Assembly (NCBI GenBank): GCA_963665235.2
Contig: CAXXLX010000001.1
Location: 4,300,705 to 4,364,704 of the forward strand
Length of the DNA stretch: 64,000 nt
Direction of reading: 5' to 3'
DNA from: Candidatus Poribacteria bacterium
GTDB lineage: Bacteria > Poribacteria > WGA-4E > WGA-3G
The position numbers were made by a program, and so were the translations under genes. The notes beneath the pieces are model-generated. The model was not told the DNA's origin. It worked only from the letters and a program-made list of their open reading frames with translations, and searched no databases. Positions 8,559-58,148 of this stretch are shown piece after piece; within the stretch, counting starts at the first letter, position 1; each line of letters starts with the position of its first letter.

Positions 8559-8738
8559 TACCATTTTTATTAATTATTCTATCATTACCGGTTGTTGGAA
8601 ATGAAACGGAGAACGGAAGACACAAACTGGAAGTTTATGCTACGATAAAGAACACAAACTGGAAGTTTATGCTACGATAAAGAACACAAACTGGAAGTTT
8701 ATGCTACAAGAAAGAGACATTTTCAATTAGAAATGGTA
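8559..8738 (-). mobile_element. MITE family A, inverted, with three internal 32-bp units
   Basis: TACCATTT...AAATGGTA ends flanked by TTA/TAA; reverse complement of the other copies. Confidence 0.85.
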
Positions 8739-8810
8739 TAACTAGTCATAATGGGATGGAGGCTGCCTGAGGAATATCGGCAGCCTCTTCTGATTTGTAA
8801 CCGAACTTAA

Positions 8811-8952
8811 ACTCTGGGTCGAGAGAGTGTGTTATCATAATGATTAGGTCGCAGGTTCGAGCCCTGCCAGCAGTCTGAGCATGTGTCATGTGAAGCCTAC
8901 TGTAGCTCAGTGGAAGAGCAAATCAAAATGCATTCCAATCCTTATCCAGAGT
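8811..8952 (+). ncRNA. YrlA-like Y RNA copy 1 (tRNA mimic)
   Basis: Terminal stem ACTCTGGGTCGAG / CTTATCCAGAGT with Ro-binding GGNCGA motif; T-arm GCAGGTTCGAGCCCTGC, then a closed acceptor-like stem CAGCAG..CTACTG, then D-arm TAGCTCAGTGGAAGAGC (permuted order as in YrlA); upstream of a Ro60 gene. Confidence 0.85.
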
Positions 8953-8961
8953 CGCATTTGT

Positions 8962-9036
8962 GCGGGCCGAAGTATTGTGTTATCCTCCGTTTACTCTCGG
9001 GGCCGGAATCCCGAGCGCAATACACACCTTGTCCGC
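8962..9036 (+). ncRNA. Short Y RNA (YrlB-like) copy 1
   Basis: GCGGGCCGAAG ... CTTGTCCGC Ro-binding stem with bulged C; inner stem GTATTGTG/CGCAATAC. Confidence 0.8.
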
Positions 9037-9058
9037 CATGAAGAAATATTTTTTTAAT

Positions 9059-9088
9059 TTGACAACAGACACCTAAATGTGATATAAT
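9059..9088 (+). promoter_or_regulatory. Sigma70-type promoter upstream of Y RNA pair 2
   Basis: TTGACA-18 nt-TATAAT with an extended -10 TG. Confidence 0.6.
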
Positions 9089-9090
9089 AA

Positions 9091-9240
9091 CCCAAGTTGC
9101 TACTTATAAGTTTTTAGACCTGGAAACACCGTCTTTAATGAAAATATGCTGATAATTAGCTAATATTTGTCCGGTTCACTTCCAATTCGCACACAAATAT
9201 GCACAATCTGGAAGATTATGCTACTATGTGGCAACTTAGG
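9091..9240. mobile_element. MITE family C (150 bp, TIR CCCAAGTTGCTAC / GTGGCAACTTAGG)
   Basis: Near-identical second copy at 36411-36560; lone end at ~16133; AT-rich flanking duplication. Confidence 0.85.
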
Positions 9241-9326
9241 TTATAATATATAATTGCTGTATGAAAATGGATGTGCGCTGCCTAAGAAATATTGGCAGAG
9301 CCTCCTGATTCGAAGCCCAACTTAAA

Positions 9327-9453
9327 CTCTGGGTCGCGAGAGTGTGTTACCCCAGCGCAGGTTCGACTCCTGCCAGTAGACCAAGCTTCATGCGAAGCCT
9401 ACTGTAGCTCAGTGGTAGAGCAAAACTTCAACGCATTCTGTTCTTATCCAGAG
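9327..9453 (+). ncRNA. YrlA-like Y RNA copy 2
   Basis: CTCTGGGTCGCG / CTTATCCAGAG stem; T-arm GCAGGTTCGACTCCTGC; CAGTAG..CTACTG; D-arm TAGCTCAGTGGTAGAGC. Confidence 0.85.
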
Positions 9454-9463
9454 CCATATTTGT

Positions 9464-9521
9464 GCGGGCCGAAGTATTGTGTTATCTTTGAAAGAGCATT
9501 CGCAATACACATCTTGCCCGC
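9464..9521 (+). ncRNA. Short Y RNA (YrlB-like) copy 2
   Basis: GCGGGCCGAAGTATTGTG ... CGCAATACACATCTTGCCCGC. Confidence 0.8.
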
Positions 9522-9569
9522 CACCGATTTATAACTGAAGAATTTAAGGTGAAAATATAGGGAGGAACA

Positions 9570-9947
9570 ATGAAAACGTTTTCGATACAAACACTTATCG
9601 CGCTATTCCTCATCAGCGGCATACATTTTGTTTTCGCAGATTGTCCTGATGAGCAACTAAAGGCTGAAGGTTCGTTTTTCATCAATGAAGCGGATGAGGC
9701 CTATATCTACGGGCAGGCTTCAGTAAGCAATCTCACCTATTGGCCCGCCAAGAACATTGAGCAAGCCCATTGGCCCGCCCTTCTCTTTAAGAGAGCTTAG
9801 ATTAGTAGTGACCACTCCGTCAGTTGCTGGCACTACTATGAAAAAGAAAAAGAGACTTTCACCGTTTATTGGGCATACCGGCTGGTTGTCGATGAGGATG
9901 CACGGTATCAGGCGAATCCGCGATATGGTCCTATGATTCTGCTGTAG
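9570..9947 (+). pseudogene. Secreted hypothetical protein with an in-frame TAG at 9798-9800
   Basis: GGAGG SD and signal peptide; the frame stays open for 48 more codons after the TAG and ends next to the SD of the following gene. Confidence 0.5.
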
Positions 9948-9958
9948 GAGAAAAAACA

Positions 9959-10933
9959 ATGCGCACCCTTTTTATTATCAGCATACTCTTCATCAGTATC
10001 GTGCCCGTTGCCTCCGCAAAAATCGTGTGGATGGCGTTCTGGGAAATCTGTGTCATGGACGATGATGGCAGCAACCGCCAAAGATTGACACATAATGATC
10101 GCTATGACACGAAACCACGCTGGTCACCCAATGGAAAGTGGATCGTTTTTCAGGGCGAACAACCTAAGGAAACCAATGAACAAAATCATGATCTGTTCCT
10201 CATGAATATAGATGGAACACAGATACGGAAACTTACCACCTACACAGGGCTTGATGTAAATCCAGACTGGTCCCCCGATAGTCAACACATAGTCTTTACA
10301 AGTACGCGAGGTGATGTGACGAGTCTTCATATCCTGGATGTTGAGACACAAGATGTCCGCGACCTCACGCGCACCCTAAAGGGGCAGGCCGCGGATAGCG
10401 CGGCTTGGTCTCATGATGGGAAACAGATTGCCTATGTAGGCAAGACTCTAAACCCCTTCACATCCGCCATCTACATCATAGGGGCAGATGGTAAAAACCC
10501 ACGTGCCCTCTTCCGCCCCGTGGTTGCACAGTACCATTCTCCCGACTGGTCGCCGGATGGGAAACATATTCTGTATGGCGAAAAAAAAGCCGTAGGCAAA
10601 ATGCGGATTTCAGATAAAATCGTCATTCGCACCGTTAATGGGAATTTGGTAAAGGAATTAGAAATGCCGGCGCTTGCGAAATGGTCAATACAAGCCGCTT
10701 GTTGGATGGGGACGAAACATGTTCTCATTGATGCCATAGAAGACTTCAAAGCCGCTGATGGGGGGCAGAGTGATATCTATCGGTATACACTATCCACCGA
10801 TGAAATCGTCAATCTCACGAAATCAGATAGAACTAACGACGGTTTTCCGGATTGGATAGATGATGGGGCACTAGCTGTTTCTCCTGTGAGCAAACTCGCC
10901 ATCCGATGGGCACAACTCAAGCAAATCCATTAA
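9959..10933 (+). CDS. Secreted TolB-like (PD40 repeat) beta-propeller protein
   Basis: PRWSPNGK, PDWSPDS and PDWSPDGK repeats; C-terminal AVSPVSKLAIRWAQLK motif. Confidence 0.85.
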   Translation: MRTLFIISILFISIVPVASAKIVWMAFWEICVMDDDGSNRQRLTHNDRYDTKPRWSPNGKWIVFQGEQPKETNEQNHDLFLMNIDGTQIRKLTTYTGLDVNPDWSPDSQHIVFTSTRGDVTSLHILDVETQDVRDLTRTLKGQAADSAAWSHDGKQIAYVGKTLNPFTSAIYIIGADGKNPRALFRPVVAQYHSPDWSPDGKHILYGEKKAVGKMRISDKIVIRTVNGNLVKELEMPALAKWSIQAACWMGTKHVLIDAIEDFKAADGGQSDIYRYTLSTDEIVNLTKSDRTNDGFPDWIDDGALAVSPVSKLAIRWAQLKQIH

Positions 10934-10955
10934 GACAGTATCACAACTAAGAAGG

Positions 10956-11399
10956 TTGATTAACAGTAGCAAAAAATCTGTGTTTTTCAGAACATAAGCT
11001 TATGTTACTAAACCTTTTAGGCAATTAAACGTCTAAATTAATGTTTTACATCTGAATGTTCCGCGTTGTGAGTTGTGTTACTTAAACACCATGTACAGAG
11101 TGCTTAGCGGGCATCCGCCCAATGTTTGCCTGGGTGGGCACAACCTCTGACAACGAAAGTAGCGAAAACCAAGCTTTGATGGAAATAGCAGGCGGAAATT
11201 GTGATAAAAACCTGCTTGGTAGTGTGACTTCGAAGCACGTAAAAAACATCGAACCTTCACAGAAGAAGCAATAAGCGTTCGCTGCCTTGTGTAGCGAACT
11301 TTGGGAGATGACCCCTGGCTGTATTCGTACAGCTTGCAAAACGTGTGTGGAAGTGAAATACATAGTATTCCACGGAAATATACAGTTTAATATCATCGG
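10956..11399 (+). mobile_element. ORF-less ~444-bp structured element, copy 1 (putative non-autonomous IS607-like)
   Basis: Second copy at 11782-12718; both begin (A)TTGATTAACAGTAGC after GG and end ATATCATCGG; covarying hairpins between the copies. Confidence 0.7.
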
Positions 11400-11504
11400 T
11401 AACTGATGCCAACACTCACCCAACTGCGCGATGATGCGTTTTCAGCGTCCCAAGAGGCACATAACCGCATGAAACGGGAGATGGCTATCTACAAAAATGA
11501 ACTT

Positions 11505-11636
11505 AATTCTGGGTCGCGGGGATGTGTTACCGGGTCGCAGGTTCGACTCCTGCCAGTAGACCGAGCGTCATGCGAAGCCTACTGTAGCTCAGTGGTAGAG
11601 CACAATATTCAACGCATTCTGTTCTTATCCAGAATT
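11505..11636 (+). ncRNA. YrlA-like Y RNA copy 3
   Basis: AATTCTGGGTCGCG / CTTATCCAGAATT (compensatory change relative to copies 1-2); same T-arm, acceptor-like stem and D-arm. Confidence 0.85.
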
Positions 11637-11642
11637 TTATTT

Positions 11643-11730
11643 GGCGGGCCGAAGTCCTACGTTAACTGCCCGTATAGTAATACACAAAGTGTATCTATAC
11701 TTAAATATCGTAGTACACACCTTGCCCGCT
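11643..11730 (+). ncRNA. Short Y RNA (YrlB-like) copy 3
   Basis: GGCGGGCCGAAGTCCTACG ... CGTAGTACACACCTTGCCCGCT. Confidence 0.8.
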
Positions 11731-11781
11731 GCCTTAAAAAAACGTTAAAAATATAAACCAAACTTAAACTCTGGGTCGAGG

Positions 11782-12718
11782 ATTGATTAACAGTAGCAAA
11801 AAACCTCTATTTTTCTAGGAACATAAGCTTATGTTCCTAAACCTTTTTGAGAACTTGACATACTCTCCCAGCTAAAGCAAGGGAGATTCTTTTAAAAAGT
11901 TCCGCTACGCGTTAGCTATTGGATTGTGGTTTTCAGACGTGTGAACGTCAACGGAGATGCTTGGGCTGTTCCAAGTCTTACTGCCCCTAACTCAAAGGAA
12001 TGCCCTTCGTGCTTCGCACCTTCTTTATGCGTTGTGAATCAGTGCTTTGGTATCCAATGCAGCATGACCCGTCTTTTGGATACCGAAAGCATTGCACAAA
12101 AATGTGGATATTGACTGGGTATCGCCAGAACATCAGCACACAACCCTACCATAGGTTGAGGTTCGGAACTTCAACATTGGTGGCGTTGAAGGTGGTAATC
12201 CGAACCACTGATGATATATATATTATACCACATTTTAATGCAAAAGTCAAATTAAAATTTTAGCTCATGCGCCGCTACTACATCCCCCAGCTAAAGCACG
12301 GGGGTTTTGTAGCGGAAGACTTGATAAATTTATGTTTTTAATGTTTTACATCTGAATGTTCCGCGTTGTGAGTCGTGTTACTTAAACACCATGTACAGAG
12401 TGCTTAGCGGGCATCCGCTCAATGTTTGCCTGGGTGGGCATGACCTCTGACAACGAAAGTAGCGAAAACCAAGCTTTGATGGAAATGAGAGGGCAAAGAA
12501 AACGTGAAAAAACCTCTCTGGTAGTGTGACTTCGAAGCACAATAAAAACCTCGAATATTCACAGTATAAGCGTTCGTTGCCTTGTGTAGCGAACTTTGGG
12601 AGATGACCCCTGGCTGTATTTATACAGCTTGCAAAACGTGTATGGAAGTGAAATACCTAGTGTTCCACAGGCTTCAGGCTACAAGCCTGCTCTTCAATAT
12701 ACAGTTTAATATCATCGG
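11782..12718 (+). mobile_element. ORF-less structured element, copy 2, inserted in Y RNA 4 and carrying a nested MITE
   Basis: Colinear with 10956-11399 once 11855-12323 is removed. Confidence 0.7.
11855..12323 (-). mobile_element. Non-autonomous IS200/IS605 derivative (no tnpA or tnpB) with promoter and omega-RNA-like 3' end
   Basis: Both ends nearly identical to those of the TnpB element 58362-59770 (TTAT|CAA..AAAA-hairpin left end; GAAT-hairpin..TCAA right end); TTGACT-17-TATAAT at 12250-12222. Confidence 0.85.
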
Positions 12719-12823
12719 CGCACATCATCGGAAGCAAGCAGGTTCGACCCCTGCCGGCGCACTTGTGTTTGACGCGCAAGTTTGCCGAGCAATGTCCGCT
12801 GTTTCTTATCCAGAGACACATTT

Positions 12824-12890
12824 GGCGGGCCGAAGTCCTACGTTAACCTATATTTATCCCATATAACCCGTAGGACACACCTTGCCCGCT
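12824..12890 (+). ncRNA. Short Y RNA (YrlB-like) copy 4, directly upstream of rsr
   Basis: GGCGGGCCGAAGTCCTACG ... CGTAGGACACACCTTGCCCGCT. Confidence 0.8.
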
Positions 12891-12910
12891 ACATTTCAAA
12901 AGGTGACATC

Positions 12911-14557
12911 ATGAGCTATTTAGGGAAATATTCTCCATTGCATCCACATCAGCGGCAGCCGTTGGACGAAAAACAGGTCCAAAATTCTGCCGGCGGATAC
13001 GCCTATCCTGTCTCTATCTGGACAAACTTAGACCGGTTTCTCATTTTAGGGACCGAAGGCGGCTCCTATTACGCCACAGAACAGGATTTGACGAAGGTCA
13101 ATGTCGATGCTGTCAAGCAGTGCATTGCCGAGGATGGGGTTCAAGTTGTTGAGCGGATACGTGAGATTTCTGTCTCCGGGCGCGCCCCGAAAAATGACCC
13201 CGCATTATACGCACTAGCCCTTGCCTTTACCCATGGCGATACGGCAACGAAACGAAAAGTGGAAGAGGTCTTCTGTGATGTCGCACGTATCGGCACACAC
13301 CTATTCAACTTTGTGGTGTTTGTAGACGGTATGCGTGGCTGGGGCAGGTCGCTACGCCGATTAGTCGGCAACTGGTACCGCACGAAGGACGATAACACCT
13401 TGGCGTATCAGGTCCTGAAATATCAATCTCGGAACAGTTGGCGGCATGCGGATGTCCTTGCAAAGTGCCACTACGGTGAAAACCGGGGCATCTACCGTTG
13501 GATAAAAGGGCTTGACACGGATAAGCGTATTGTGCATCGCACCCTACAAAATGAAGAAAAGACAGCTACCGTTTACGAGGCCACCGACGCTTTGCCTGAA
13601 TTGCTCGCCGGATATGAGGACCTGAAACGCACAGAGAAACGCGTGGATGTTATCCAGCTCATTGAGAAACATCAATTCACCCACGAAATGGTGCCGAACG
13701 AGTGGAAAAATGAAACGGAAGTATGGGCGGCGTTGCTACAGAACATGCCCGTTATGGCAACGGTGCGAAACCTCGGTAAGATGACGCAAATCGGGTTGTT
13801 GAAACCTTTTGGAGCAGAGGTTCAAACCGTGCTAGAAAGACTCTCCGCTGAGGCGATTCAACGTTCGCGCATCCATCCTATCCAAATCCTTATGGCGTTG
13901 ATAACATACAAGGCAGGTAAGGGAGTGAGAGGCAGCTTAACCTGGGAGCCCGTGCCGCAGATTGTTGATGGGTTGGACGCTGCGTTTTATATGGCGTTCG
14001 ATAACGTTGAACCGAGCCAAAAGAACACGCTCCTAGCACTTGATGTCTCTGGGTCAATGGCAGGCAGAACTGTGGCAGGATGTGAAGGCTTAACACCGCG
14101 TAATGCGTCCGCTGCCATGGCACTCGTAACCGCACGCACGGAACCGCATTATCATATCTTCGGGTTTTCAGAAGGTTTTGTGACCCTGCCGATTACAGCA
14201 AACGATACGTTGGATAGTGCTATTAAAGCTGTCTCTGGATTGCCCTTTGATGGCACCGATTGCGCTCTCCCCATGCTGTATGCATTGGAACATAAACTAC
14301 AGATAGACACCTTCGTCATCTATACAGATAATGAAACGTGGTATGGCGACATTCATCCGAAAACAGCATTGGACAACTATCGGCAAAAGATGGGGCGACC
14401 CGCAAAGTGTGCTGTTGTCGGGATGGTGGCGAACGACTTCTCTATCGCTGACCCAGAGGATGCGGGCATGCTCGATTTTGTCGGGTTTGATACCGCTACA
14501 CCTGCATTGCTCAGTGATTTCGCTAAAGATGCAGACATCTCCGATGAAACGGCGTAA
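12911..14557 (+). CDS. rsr: Ro60-related TROVE domain RNA-binding protein (Rsr)
   Basis: NSAGGY, LDRFLILGTEGGSYY, RGWGR, KYQSRNSWRHAD TROVE motifs; vWA MIDAS DVSGSM, GTDC, YTDNETW; ATG 12911 with AAAGGTGA SD. Confidence 0.95.
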   Translation: MSYLGKYSPLHPHQRQPLDEKQVQNSAGGYAYPVSIWTNLDRFLILGTEGGSYYATEQDLTKVNVDAVKQCIAEDGVQVVERIREISVSGRAPKNDPALYALALAFTHGDTATKRKVEEVFCDVARIGTHLFNFVVFVDGMRGWGRSLRRLVGNWYRTKDDNTLAYQVLKYQSRNSWRHADVLAKCHYGENRGIYRWIKGLDTDKRIVHRTLQNEEKTATVYEATDALPELLAGYEDLKRTEKRVDVIQLIEKHQFTHEMVPNEWKNETEVWAALLQNMPVMATVRNLGKMTQIGLLKPFGAEVQTVLERLSAEAIQRSRIHPIQILMALITYKAGKGVRGSLTWEPVPQIVDGLDAAFYMAFDNVEPSQKNTLLALDVSGSMAGRTVAGCEGLTPRNASAAMALVTARTEPHYHIFGFSEGFVTLPITANDTLDSAIKAVSGLPFDGTDCALPMLYALEHKLQIDTFVIYTDNETWYGDIHPKTALDNYRQKMGRPAKCAVVGMVANDFSIADPEDAGMLDFVGFDTATPALLSDFAKDADISDETA

Positions 14558-14790: not shown

Positions 14791-15417
14791 TTAATCTGAA
14801 TAGTTGCATGAGACTTCTTTGTTGAAAAAAATCGGGTCATGCCAATAACATCCGACACACGTTCCATTGTATAATCCATTACCACGCACTTGGCTAACTT
14901 GATAACCTAAGCGTTTCGCGTCAAAACGCTGCCCTGTCTCTCGACACTCAACACAATGTTGTCTCTTGGCATAATTAGCAGCCTTCGATAGTGGTTGAAA
15001 ATCATCAAGTGTTACCTGATTTGCGTCACTCAGCCTCGGGTCGTCCAGTCTTCCGTCTTTATGGTCACACTCTGGACCACTTGTTCCCAATACAACACAG
15101 CGTTGTGCCCTCACCTCCTCTCTAATGTTATTGGGTATTGGCTTTTCAGTAACCGGGACTTTTCTAAAGCCTTGCAACTCAACGTGAGTTATTTTACCTC
15201 TGCCTTCAGGGTGGCGGCGAATATTGTAATATCGTGATAAACTACCGTCTTTGCGTATCCAATCACCCCCGTTTCCAAACTGGAGTGATGCATATTTTCC
15301 TACAAATTCTGTAACTGGAACTGGACAGCTGAAACCGAGATCATCTGGTTTAGCAAGCTGAATAAACAGCGCAGGCTTGCTTCCTTTTCTAAACTGAGAG
15401 CCTTGATCGTTACTCAT
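14791..15417 (-). CDS. HNH restriction endonuclease, IceA1/NlaIII family
   Basis: LF..LAKP, FGNGG.W.R, DHKDGR.DD.R, DDFQPL.KA.N..KRQ.C..C, CVGCY..DP motifs recalled from H. pylori IceA1; start overlaps the MTase stop (ATGAGTAA). Confidence 0.8.
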   Translation of the reverse strand: MSNDQGSQFRKGSKPALFIQLAKPDDLGFSCPVPVTEFVGKYASLQFGNGGDWIRKDGSLSRYYNIRRHPEGRGKITHVELQGFRKVPVTEKPIPNNIREEVRAQRCVVLGTSGPECDHKDGRLDDPRLSDANQVTLDDFQPLSKAANYAKRQHCVECRETGQRFDAKRLGYQVSQVRGNGLYNGTCVGCYWHDPIFFNKEVSCNYSD

Positions 15418-16111
15418 TCTCAATCCTCTCTTGTGAAATTTTCGCATAATTGGAATCTATATCACATCCTGCAAACCTTCGGAAATTTCTGACGGCAGCA
15501 ACACCTGTAGTTCCTGCTCCAAGGAATGGGTCCACAACAAGATCGCCCTGGTTACTGTGCTTGCGCACTAAATCCTCAAATAACTCTAAGGGTTTTTGTG
15601 TAGGGTGTTGTCTTTTACCCTTATGTCGAGGGATTGGATATTCATAGATACCAGAGTCATACTGGCTATGGAAAGTAGGTGTACCAACTTTGACCCCTGC
15701 AACAGCCATTTCTCGACTGTTAGAAAGATAAGTAGAGCGCATATTTAACGGGACAGGGTTGGTTTTCTGCCAGATAATCTGGCGAATCATTTTAAATCCT
15801 GCTAACTCCATAGCCTCTTTTACCTTACCTATCTTCCAAAGATCATACCACACGATGGCAGTTCCGCCACGACGCAAGGATTTATAAAACACCCTTGCCA
15901 TCGCTTCGAGATTTATCTCAACGTGATCCCATACACCGAAGTCCATACTAACGGCGAATTTCTTTTCACCGTTCACCACTGCCGAAAATCCTGTTTTTTT
16001 ACTAATGCAATATGGTGGATCTGTTAAGATAAGGTCTACTGATCCAGCCGGTAACGAATCCATAAATTCATGATAATCAGATACTTTGACGCTAAATTCT
16101 GTAAAGGGCAT
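15410..16111 (-). CDS. Site-specific DNA N6-adenine/N4-cytosine methyltransferase, beta class
   Basis: TDPPY precedes HPTQKP and DPFLGAGTT. Confidence 0.9.
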   Translation of the reverse strand: MPFTEFSVKVSDYHEFMDSLPAGSVDLILTDPPYCISKKTGFSAVVNGEKKFAVSMDFGVWDHVEINLEAMARVFYKSLRRGGTAIVWYDLWKIGKVKEAMELAGFKMIRQIIWQKTNPVPLNMRSTYLSNSREMAVAGVKVGTPTFHSQYDSGIYEYPIPRHKGKRQHPTQKPLELFEDLVRKHSNQGDLVVDPFLGAGTTGVAAVRNFRRFAGCDIDSNYAKISQERIENE

Positions 16112-16525
16112 AGTTGTCTTCTCTCTTATTTAACCCAAGTTGCTAGTTAATAGTATGGTTTGGACAGTTTCATCTTTGCCTTTCATTATTTTTCCACTTT
16201 TTTGCTGCTAGCCCACCTACTACGCAGACGGTCTTTACCGTGCAGTACTGGTATCCGTCGCCAGCAGTCCGCGCTTAATCAACGCGTTAATTTGATTTTA
16301 CACTAAGAGTATAACATATATTTTGCTACTTGTCAAGTGAAAATATAAAAAAATGGGTGTGTAAAGTTTTTGTACTATGATAGAGGGAAGAATGAAAGAT
16401 TGGATTTCGCGTGTGTGTTGTCTGAATGCACATCGCATTTGGGCGAGTACACCGCAAATCGCGGATTATCGCGGAGGACACGGAAGACGCGGAGTTTAAG
16501 AGGTGTCCGCCTATCTAAAAAGGTA

Positions 16526-17362
16526 TCGCGTGCACAGCACGCTCCTACAGAGGAAAAGAGGGCGCGTGCACAGCACGCTCCTACAGAGGAGAAGAGGGCG
16601 CGTCACAGCACGCTCCTACAGAGGAAAAGAGGGCGCGTCACAGCACACTCCTACAGAGGAGAAGCGGTCGCGTGCACGCGTACAGAGGAGAAGCGGTCGC
16701 GCACAGCACGCTCCTACAGAGGAGAAGAGGGCGCGTGCACAGCACGCTCCTACAGAGGAAAAGAGGGCGCGTCACAGCACGCTCCTACAGAGGAGAAGAG
16801 GGCGCGTCACAGCACGCTCCTACAGAGGAAAAGAGGGCGCGTCACAGCACACTCCTACAGAGGAGAAGAGGGCGCGTCACAGCACGCTCCTACAGAGGAA
16901 AAGAGGGCGCGTGCACAGCACACTCCTACAGAGGAGAAGAGGGCGCGTGCACAGCACGCTCCTACAGAGGAAAAGAGGGCGCGTGCACAGCACACTCCTA
17001 CAGAGGAGAAGAGGGCGCGTGCACAGCACACTCCTACAGAGGAAAAGAGGGCGCGTGCACAGCACACTCCTACAGAGGAAAAGAGGGCGCGTGCACAGCA
17101 CGCTCCTACAGAGGAAAAGAGGGCGCGTGCACAGCACACTCCTACAGAGGAGAAGAGGGCGCGTGCACAGCACACTCCTACAGAGGAAAAGAGGGCGCGT
17201 GCACAGCACACTCCTACAGAGGAAAAGAGGGCGCGTGCACAGCACGCTCCTACAGAGGAGAAGAGGGCGCGTGCACAGCACGCTCCTACAGAGGAAAAGA
17301 GGGCGCGTCACAGCACGCTCCTACAGAGGAAAAGAGGGCGCGTCACAGCACACTCCTACAGA
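16526..17362. repeat. Tandem array of ~23-24 copies of a 35-36-bp REP-like unit
   Basis: gggcgcgtgcacagcac(g/a)ctcctacagagga(a/g)aaga repeated without spacers; the minus strand is GTAG-GA-GCGTGC-TGT-GCACGC. Confidence 0.95.
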
Positions 17363-17454
17363 AATGACCCTGAAGATGTTTAAATATTAGATTGCACAAT
17401 TAAGGTGAAATGTGGTATGATAACAGCATCAACGTCTAAAGGAGGGATCTAGCA

Positions 17455-22540: not shown

Positions 22541-22818
22541 GAAAAAACCCTCCCGTTCCAAAACTGGAGACGAGAAGGCTCTATAAGATTACCTTACCGT
22601 GGTACCACTCCAATTCCCGTTCTCATTTTTTCACTGAGAAAGGGCACTCTTGGGGATGCGATAACGGGCATCACACCGGCTAACCCTACACAACAACCCA
22701 TGCCTTCGGATTAGCAGCTCCAGGGCGACCTTCAGTCGGTAGCACTTGAGGAAACCTCTCAGCCTACGAATTTCCTTCTCTGACAAGCCGAGCCGACTTA
22801 CTCCTCCCCTTCAACGCT
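22541..22818 (-). promoter_or_regulatory. T-box riboswitch leader of ilvBNC (probable GUC Val specifier) with intrinsic terminator
   Basis: Minus strand: AGTA, AGAGA and GCTGAGA stem I motifs, GAAG-GTC-G specifier loop, CCGTTATC, T-box AATTGGAGTGGTACCACG, terminator CCTTCTCGT...ACGGGAGGGTTTTTT. Confidence 0.9.
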
Positions 22819-22872
22819 TTTTTTGTAAATTTAATTCAACGTGTTACTAAAAATTGTGTTTCCTTTTTTTAA

Positions 22873-42880: not shown

Positions 42881-43201
42881 TTTGTGTCTCCTCACTTGAA
42901 GTTGTTGATTTTTGGAACATTCTATCACGATTACTTTTTTTGGTCAAGAAATTTATGAACTAAGAGTGTGTGAAATTTTTGTAAATATGATAGAGGGAAG
43001 GGTGGAAGGGTGGAAGAGGGGACGGATGGAAGGATGGAAGAGGGGACGGATGGAAGAGGGGATTTCGCGTCTGTCCTGTCTGAATCGCGGAAGGCACAGA
43101 GGACACAGAGGACGCGGAAAAAGAGGGTTGTTGCTAACATCTACGGATTTTTTGTCTGAACCGGGGATTATCGCGCATTACACGGATTGCGTGGATTGTA
43201 A

Positions 43202-43349
43202 TACCATTTCTAATTGAAAATGTCTCTTTCTTGTAGCATAAACTTCCAGTTTGTGTGCTTTATTGTAGCATAAACTTCCAGTTTGTGTCTTCCGTTCTCC
43301 GTTTCATTTCTAACAACCGGTAATGATAGAATAATTAATAAAAATGGTA
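43202..43349 (+). mobile_element. MITE family A with two internal units, TAA duplication
   Basis: TAA-TACCATTT...AAATGGTA-TAA. Confidence 0.85.
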
Positions 43350-53426: not shown

Positions 53427-53797
53427 TACCATTTCTAATTGAAAATGTCTCTTTCTTGTAGCATAAACTTCAGTTTGTGCACTTTATTGTAGCATAAACT
53501 TCCAGTTTGTGCACTTTATTGTAGCATAAACTTCCAGTTTGTGCACTTTATTGTAGCATAAACTTCCAGTTTGTGCACTTTATTGTAGCATAAACTTCCA
53601 GTTTGTGCACTTTATTGTAGCATAAACTTCCAGTTTGTGCACTTTATTGTAGCATAAACTTCCAGTTTGTGCACTTTATTGTAGCATAAACTTCCAGTTT
53701 GTGCACTTTATTGTAGCATAAACTTTTAGTTTGGGTCTTCCGTTCTCCGTTTCATTTCTAACAACCGGTAATGATAGAATAATTAATAAAAATGGTA
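53427..53797 (+). mobile_element. MITE family A with nine tandem 32-bp units, TAA duplication
   Basis: gtagcataaacttccagtttgtgcactttatt x9 between the TIRs. Confidence 0.9.
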
Positions 53798-57968: not shown

Positions 57969-58148
57969 TACCATTTCTAATTGAAAATGTCTCTTTCTTG
58001 TAGCATAAACTTCCAGTTTGTGCGTTTTATCGTAGCATAAACTTCCAGTTTGTGCGTTTTATCGTAGCATAAACTTCCAGTTTGTGTCTTCCGTTCTCCG
58101 TTTCATTTCTAACAACCGGTAATGATAGAATAATTAATAAAAATGGTA
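57969..58148 (+). mobile_element. MITE family A with three units, TAA duplication
   Basis: Inserted into a ~52-bp repeat whose empty sister copy (gcaacTAAtatgataaaatcgg) lies at ~58196. Confidence 0.9.

Follow-up and report, generated by a model that had tools for sequence, protein, structure and literature searches.

At the end of contig C1 of a Candidatus Poribacteria genome (assembly GCA_963665235.2; 5.3 Mb in 4 contigs, 92.6% complete), we analyzed a 64,000-nucleotide (nt) stretch of DNA, referred to here as the window, in which a cluster of Y RNA genes precedes a single rsr gene, the orthologue of Ro60. The cluster consists of three intact long RNAs of the YrlA type, four short hairpin Y RNAs and one long RNA that is split in two (Table 1). 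A preliminary description of this DNA had counted eight Y RNA genes; seven are intact, and long RNA 4 is interrupted by a 937-nt derivative of the IS607 family. The layout proposed there was otherwise borne out: we find four leaders containing AACTTAA, four short RNAs, and three intact long RNAs with a T arm, an acceptor-like stem and a D arm, and the linkers from long to short RNA measure 9-10 nt.

The rsr gene gave one tblastn match in the genome. Its product has the TROVE HEAT ring and vWA domain expected of Ro60 (PF05731, 124 bits; PF25045, 207 bits) and full-length likeness to solved Ro60 structures (2nvo, 426 bits; 9nen, 426 bits; 1yvp, 412 bits), scoring 426 bits against both D. radiodurans Rsr and human RO60. 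A protein search returned only Poribacteria-like relatives at 70-99%, plus a tail at 50-56%. The 17 nearest Rsr loci, at 73-84% identity, come from Candidatus Poribacteria (15) and from sequences labeled uncultured bacterium (2).

Table 1. Coordinates of the Y RNA cluster, its insertions and rsr in the window
Feature	Position	Strand	Remarks
Small mobile element (32-bp tandem repeats, inverted ends)	8560-8737		in unit 1 promoter region
Leader hairpin and AACTTAA, unit 1	8754-8811	+	81% like unit 2 leader
Long RNA 1, YrlA-type	8812-8951	+	YrlA 27.5 bits; extra variable arm; acceptor-stem pairs 5/7
Short hairpin Y RNA 1	8962-9036	+	best Rfam match nematode sbRNA RF01656, 17.6 bits
Promoter candidate, sigma-70 type, unit 2	9059-9088	+	consensus match only, 12/12
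Long RNA 2, YrlA-type	9327-9453	+	YrlA 31 bits; acceptor-stem pairs 6/7
Short hairpin Y RNA 2	9464-9521	+	hairpin structure with covariation support
Insert between units 2 and 3	9536-11497		1962 nt; 4-nt repeat at bounds
Non-autonomous IS607-family derivative, copy A	10956-11399	+	GG at both junctions; no open reading frames
Long RNA 3, YrlA-type	11507-11634	+	YrlA 36.4 bits; acceptor-stem pairs 6/7
Short hairpin Y RNA 3	11644-11729	+	hairpin structure with covariation support
Long RNA 4, 5' end	11769-11781	+	13 nt; 5' strand of terminal helix
Non-autonomous IS607-family derivative, copy B	11782-12718	+	937 nt; at GG inside long RNA 4
Putative IS200/IS605-type non-autonomous derivative nested in copy B	11855-12323	-	469 nt; TTTAT before left end
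Long RNA 4, 3' part	12719-12815	+	T arm, closed acceptor-like stem, 3' strand of terminal helix; no D arm
Short hairpin Y RNA 4	12825-12889	+	21 nt ahead of rsr start
rsr (Ro60 orthologue)	12911-14557	+	548 amino acids; single copy; TROVE and vWA_Ro60

Conserved RNA structures and their linkage to rsr

Both classes of RNA have conserved, covarying structures. We aligned the window RNAs with those of 21 related rsr loci (the 17 nearest by Rsr and 4 from related genomes); 32 long and 33 short matches were reduced to 30 and 31 distinct sequences by dropping duplicates, and long RNA 4 was left out. RNAalifold folds the long RNAs into a terminal stem, an upper stem, a T arm, an acceptor-like stem and a D arm, and the short RNAs into two stems, with 98.7% and 99.3% of cells paired, respectively. 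Double changes occur at 14 of the 32 long pairs and 6 of the 13 short pairs, a level reached in 0 of 500 shuffles. Covariation lies above all 500 shuffles on four of five measures and above controls with slid structures, in which at most 50% (long) and 54% (short) of cells are paired; these controls overstate the contrast, because the sequences are kin and were themselves the source of the structure. Of the long pairs, the window copies retain 31, 32 and 32, and of the short pairs 13, 13, 12 and 13. Compensatory change in the terminal stems, first noticed by comparing the window copies, is visible as a C-G to U-A exchange at the terminal pair, and the RNAalifold analysis called for in the preliminary description yields covariation across the copies and their homologous loci.

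In long RNAs 1-3 the T arm, closed acceptor-like stem and D arm follow one another in the permuted order of YrlA (Salmonella Typhimurium, M. smegmatis; RF02553); long RNA 4, which has lost its D arm, does not have this arrangement. The intact long RNAs lie on the same strand as rsr and 1.3-4.0 kb upstream of it, within the 4-kb proximity characteristic of YrlA, with a hairpin partner behind them as in M. smegmatis; multi-copy loci are also known for YrlA. Unlike YrlA, the window long RNAs conserve both strands of the terminal helix, reduce the Ro motif to GUCG, include a split copy and have no rtcB, rtcA or rtcR alongside. The core GUCG is kept in 29 of the 30 aligned long RNAs, and a Levitt pair (G15:C48) is possible in 29 of 30, including all three intact window RNAs. 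A long-RNA model that we built scores long RNA 1, a member of its training set, at 105.8 bits and the 3' part of long RNA 4, which is outside that set, at 26.9 bits (E 1.2e-5). With the insert removed, long RNA 4 is 110 nt long and pairs at 8/8 terminal, 8/9 upper-stem and 6/7 acceptor-like positions; as it pairs this well at only 54-57% identity to the other copies, it was a structured RNA before the insertion.

The acceptor-like stem has all seven pairs in 20 of 27 RNAs of relatives and 5, 6 and 6 pairs in the intact window RNAs. RNase P cleavage has been tied to a 7-bp acceptor-like stem (Chen et al., 2014, PMC4201824), so we predict that the window long RNAs are poorer RNase P substrates than the 7-pair RNAs of relatives. 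In long RNA 2 alone, ACCA follows a 6-bp acceptor-like strand (9387-9396).

The short RNAs have the features of hairpin Y RNAs, namely a terminal helix with a bulged C, the motif GNCGAAG and a long hairpin beside rsr. GNCGAAG is present in 27 of 31 short RNAs, including all four in the window, and CUUG(C/U)CC in 29 of 31. Salmonella YrlB, M. smegmatis YrlB and D. radiodurans Yrn2 resemble them in the end-closing hairpin, in GNCGAAG and in the site beside a tRNA-like RNA, and differ in that the window has four copies at one locus. The window shorts keep both helix strands, as in Deinococcus and animals, have no T arm and correspond to no Rfam model. They are 55-65% identical to one another and differ in their loops and upper stems.

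Both RNA types track rsr across genomes, in agreement with the earlier suggestion that these genes serve one Rsr. Among 61 genomes, a short-RNA model matched the source genome and the same 14 family members that bear rsr; the 22 family members lacking rsr gave no match. Strong long-RNA matches occur only in rsr-bearing genomes and nearly always beside rsr; four weak matches (35-37 bits) fall in genomes without rsr. A distant rsr-bearing genome of the Poribacteria order (G044, locus L078) was missed by both models; it has several divergent Y-RNA-like hairpins with a GUUAUC module upstream of rsr. At three other loci (L018, L019 and L020), motif-bearing Y-RNA-like units appear to be interleaved with tRNA-like genes upstream of rsr.

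The number of copies in the window is high. A search of 151 genomes from the phylum gave matches in 30 relatives; 13 of these have one short RNA and 17 have two, whereas the source genome has five, one of which is remote and truncated. Relatives have their one or two pairs directly ahead of rsr, behind a TTGACA-type promoter. Since all 30 matching relatives have one or two pairs, the locus is amplified, as had been proposed. The window has seven intact RNAs, more than any other locus that we examined (at most four in the 30 relatives and at most five motif matches in 37 other loci); with the split gene included, it has two to four times the number present in relatives. The premise that bacterial loci typically hold one or two Y RNAs fares less well against the literature. 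Chen et al. (2014, PMC4201824) reported 355 putative YrlA in 254 bacteria and 22 phages, and their Table S1 already has three YrlA per locus at many loci, spread over several genera, and four each for Neisseria elongata, Hahella chejuensis and Chondromyces apiculatus; these counts exclude hairpin partners, and Poribacteria are not named in five of the six files of that work. Upstream of rsr, D. radiodurans has two Y RNAs and three more Rsr-associated RNAs (Chen et al., 2014, PMC4201824). A locus with four tRNA-like RNAs thus equals the published maximum and does not exceed it. A count of seven or eight including hairpins was not found in the literature searched, which did not take in key reviews of the field. 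The window extends the known range and adds no new class.

Neither rtcB nor rtcR adjoins rsr, as had been noted. The genome has rtcB about 970 kb from rsr and a gene for PNPase; rtcA and rtcR were not found in the 92.6% complete genome. Within the available flanks, an RtcB-like gene lies near rsr in 0 of 17 Poribacteria-like loci and 2 of 37 others. Because rtcB is so seldom beside rsr in these loci, the missing repair operon is no peculiarity of the window.

Insertions and turnover in the cluster

Ten sequencing runs from four studies contain part of the window, and we compared the contigs of four of them with it. Run X3, from a study that possibly includes the source sample, has contigs that span four junctions without differences (9393-9881, 11296-11597, 11573-11882 and 12672-13541). 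Runs X6 and X7, one of DNA and one of RNA, come from another study and join 9535 to 11498, so that unit 2 stands directly before unit 3; the leader at this joint resembles the other leaders. As another strain joins these two units, the spread of the cluster over 4 kb results from later insertions, and the compact strain form, the short repeat at the bounds of the insert and the likeness of the leaders together indicate that the compact arrangement is probably ancestral. The insert between units 2 and 3 holds an open reading frame (ORF) of 76 amino acids (9570-9800), followed by a gene for a PD40 beta-propeller (9959-10933) and then by IS607 derivative A. One X7 contig ends at 10955, the left junction of copy A, and continues unlike the window.

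The ends of the two derivatives match those of autonomous elements in the same genome that encode a MerR-HTH/resolvase and TnpB (domains Resolvase, MerR, OrfB_IS605 and TNB), and the junctions are GG. Ends shared with serine-recombinase/TnpB elements, together with GG junctions, place both copies in the IS607 family. IS607 insertion sequences and group B IStrons have the same junctions and ends; unlike these, the window derivative has no ORFs, an orphan interior of about 270 nt and no sign of a group I intron. Both genomic copies of this interior (10990-11290 and 12338-12590) sit in the Y RNA cluster. It has no relative in 60 related genomes or plasmids, was absent from metagenome contigs as queried with two exact patterns, and in a translated self-search gave only copies A and B among the matches listed. 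The IS607 right end closes with 8 nt that appear again 5 nt inside the adjoining Y RNA sequence (12709-12733). If element RNA were to run past this end, the TnpB guide would be Y RNA sequence.

The element nested in copy B, which we take to be of the IS200/IS605 type from its end hairpins and TTTAT flank, features of that family, and from the translation of its longer relatives, has about ten near-full copies in the genome, and its longer relatives carry a 400-amino-acid ORF that looks TnpB-like by eye. One copy (C1:3342010-3342515) lies directly upstream of the genome's rtcB. The small 32-bp-repeat element ahead of unit 1 is far more abundant, with 1163 BLAST pieces genome-wide (query 8590-8803). 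It has further sites in the window at about 43200-43320, 53430-53700 and 57970-58120, and it occupies the -10 promoter box both in unit 1 and in an IS607 copy at C1:74100-74270.

A fifth copy of unit 1, 99% identical and inverted, lies about 78 kb away (C1:4231447-4231760, minus strand) and was seen in run X5 too. It comprises promoter, leader, long RNA 1 and a short RNA 1 cut before its 3' strand, and it converges on a 412-amino-acid ORF. Where the window copy has the 32-bp-repeat element, the remote copy has a plain TTGACA/TACAAT promoter.

Identities among the copies support the earlier view that the units are mosaic. Long RNAs 2 and 3 are 89% identical, long RNA 1 is 73-74% identical to either, and the short RNAs share exact 5' ends within the pairs 1-2 and 3-4. 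Duplication with recombination, which had been suggested from the window, agrees with the variable combinations of long and short types at the loci of relatives. Two relatives have a long RNA without a short partner: in genome G007 (contig C57, locus L076) it is on another contig than rsr, and the other case is locus L017. We envision that duplication, together with swapping of long and short partners, enlarged a compact series of pairs ahead of rsr, that the promoter-leader-pair cassette of unit 1 was copied once more to the remote site, and that mobile elements then spread the units apart and split long RNA 4, which would be inactive for as long as the IS607 derivative stays in the DNA.

Redundant copies or a specialized repertoire

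By analogy, this locus would work like known rsr-Y RNA loci. The repeated unit is a pair. One member is a YrlA-type RNA, in which a presumed Ro-binding terminal stem is joined to a circularly permuted tRNA-like domain; the other is a hairpin Y RNA with a presumed Ro-binding stem, an upper stem and a variable loop. As in Deinococcus, Salmonella and Mycobacterium, pairs may be transcribed as precursors of the form long-short(-long-short...-rsr) and cut in their A/U-rich leaders and linkers. Each RNA would then bind the outer surface of Rsr through its terminal helix and either gate the RNA cavity of Rsr or, through the tRNA-like domain, tether Rsr to an exonuclease such as PNPase. Polycistronic transcription, processing, terminal-helix binding and gating or PNPase tethering have been described by Chen et al. 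(2014, PMC4201824) and by Wang et al. (2018, 10.1101/312249). Promoter and terminator scans of the window performed at chance level (12 sites against 10.1 expected, and 7 against 6.4, respectively), so that termination cannot be read from the hairpin at 11816-11839.

We consider it probable that this is a cluster of largely redundant Y RNA genes for the adjacent Rsr, which turn over in a birth-and-death manner while selection acts on their structure. For many relatives a single pair is enough, as judged from the 13 with a single short RNA and the 17 with two. Turnover is indicated by the truncated remote copy, the split long RNA 4, the displaced or partnerless long RNAs of relatives and the difference between strains. 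Several observations weigh against this interpretation. The covariance-model search that had been proposed gave a divided answer: the YrlA model matches long RNAs 1-3, with long RNA 3 its top match in the whole genome (E 5.2e-6), and all three scores (27.5-36.4 bits) fall under the RF02553 gathering score of 69, for which reason we call these RNAs YrlA-type and not formal members of the family. Further sites in the same genomes reach 31 bits with that model. The published Ro motif GNCGAAN0-1G is present in 2 of 30 long RNAs and in none of the three intact ones in the window. RNA-run contigs from X7 cover long RNA 2, short RNA 2 and part of long RNA 3 along with neighboring genes, may derive from DNA, and cannot reveal transcripts, ends or levels. 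Among the joints listed (15 of 38), none is an empty long RNA 4 site. Redundancy in particular is opposed by the age of the copies (55-89% identical) and by the persistence of two distinct pair types across many relatives.

These last points bring in a second interpretation, compatible with the first and in our judgment less probable, in which the copies form a specialized repertoire that gives the single Rsr a separate partner or affinity through each RNA, as proposed for vertebrate Y RNAs. The copies do differ at sites that could matter for function: long RNA 1 has its variable arm, acceptor-like pairing is 5, 6, 6 and 6 of 7 (7/7 in 20 of 27 RNAs of relatives), long RNA 4 has lost both the D arm and GUUAYC, and the shorts diverge in loops and upper stems. 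Two pair types persist in 17 relatives, and unit 2 has a promoter candidate of its own. On the other side, 13 of 30 relatives make do with one short RNA, one long RNA is split and the remote short RNA truncated, partners are freely swapped between loci, and mobile elements, which generate duplications, abound in the genome. Whether redundant or specialized, the copies amount to a natural allelic series in which RNAs for one Rsr vary in the Ro motif, the variable arm, the length of the acceptor stem, the D arm and the upper stem, and which makes the roles of the tRNA-like domain and of the hairpin RNAs testable in vitro.

Among 4227 Rfam families, the best match of short RNA 1, end to end, is the nematode sbRNA family (RF01656); only 1 of 20 short RNAs matches this model (E 2; gathering score 38), which leaves the shorts outside formal sbRNA membership, and short RNA 2 scanned alone gave no related match. 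The vertebrate Y RNA model (RF00019), another search proposed in the preliminary description, matches none of the shorts. Searches with RF01656 and RF00019 in five genomes each, with 150 candidates scored in most genomes, did not return window-type RNAs. Unlike nematode sbRNAs and vertebrate Y RNAs, the window shorts are bacterial and have no poly(U) tail. Kowalski et al. (2015, PMC4450293) and Kowalski and Krude (2015, PMC4726728) list a lower stem that bears a bulged C, a UG-CA upper stem and UUA(U/C)C at the loop's 5' end as common to sbRNAs and vertebrate Y RNAs, and state that no homology links bacterial with vertebrate Y RNAs; Chen et al. (2014, PMC4201824) had already remarked on a conserved YUAY in YrlA. 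We find UG-CA in 18 of 31 short RNAs (window shorts 1 and 2, not 3 and 4) and UUA(U/C)C in 21 of 31 short and 27 of 30 long RNAs, with UUAAC in its place in shorts 3 and 4.

In 37 rsr loci of other phyla, many of them from related actinobacteria, the spacer from the bulged-C motif to GUUAYC measures 9, 10 or 11 nt in 3, 37 and 22 matches, respectively; there are no matches at 5-8 or 12-14 nt and 13 at 4 nt. A looser form of the pattern gives 65 matches on the rsr strand against 0 on the opposite strand, with 0-5 per locus and 34 of 37 loci positive; these counts are lower bounds, since contig ends cut many loci and the pattern misses some known copies. The window has seven matches, long RNA 4 being without GUUAYC. 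The module picks up bacterial Y RNAs that Rfam misses. On these sequence patterns, a 5' module of a bulged C, a 9-11 nt spacer and GUUAYC is common to bacterial phyla and to the nematode sbRNA model, the model scores being weak. It is conceivable, and we propose it only tentatively, that bacterial and animal Y RNAs share this module by ancestry, a module larger than the Ro-binding helix and including an upper stem of 9-11 nt, that the Poribacterial hairpins are close counterparts of nematode sbRNAs and vertebrate Y RNAs, and that the seven or eight variants are specialized adaptors for one Ro60, with long RNA 4 switched off by an excisable IS607 element. If so, the UG-CA and UUAUC elements needed for animal Y-RNA-dependent DNA replication would predate animals and would mark a second conserved protein contact, and if the module is homologous to animal UUAUC, the printed statement that bacterial and vertebrate Y RNAs are not homologous would need revision.

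The interruption of long RNA 4 raises another scenario, which we regard as very unlikely: that the insert is an IStron, a group I intron with IS607 ends, that splices out and allows all eight RNAs to be made. Group B IStrons have IS607 ends, target GG and may be ORF-less (Tourasse et al., 2014, PMC4227781), copies A and B show paired changes in one hairpin, and long RNA 4 folds well once the insert is removed. The element, however, is without an Rfam match up to E 10, and shuffled sequences fold as well as its interior (z 0.52). In copy B the base that follows GG is A in place of U, a 469-nt element interrupts this copy, and no spliced joint is among the joints listed (15 of 38). We accordingly rejected a group B identity for copy B on the Rfam result, the folding score and the base after GG.

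It is highly improbable that the long RNAs have nothing to do with Rsr and represent tRNA decoys or remnants of decayed tRNAs. Their T and D arms do agree with tRNAs of this genome at as many as 32 of 38 positions and the Ro motif is reduced to GUCG, but the T arm precedes the D arm, ARAGORN found no tRNA, strong matches are restricted to rsr-bearing genomes and nearly always adjoin rsr, and the terminal and upper stems covary. Least credible of all is an assembly artefact, a concern raised with the preliminary description: genome contamination is 5.65%, the unit 1/unit 2 junction is not among the contig pieces listed and the compared runs show only the remote-copy letters at 8776 and 8800, but the copies are 55-89% identical and hence not duplicates, the X3 contigs bridge four junctions, and three samples of one study, one of them maybe the source sample, contain 80-84% of the sequence words.

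Neighboring genes and other features of the window

The neighboring genes encode an oxidoreductase, a PD40 propeller, an IceA-like protein and a DNA methylase. The gene for the IceA-like nuclease lies behind that for the N6/N4 DNA methylase (14791-16111, minus strand), convergent with rsr, and the two are probably a restriction-modification pair. Farther on, a long array of 33-bp tandem repeats (16503-17390) is open in all three plus-strand frames. At the gathering level, Rfam reported a T-box alone in the whole window, a leader at 22563-22823 (minus strand, 110 bits) upstream of genes that read as ilvB-ilvN-ilvC.

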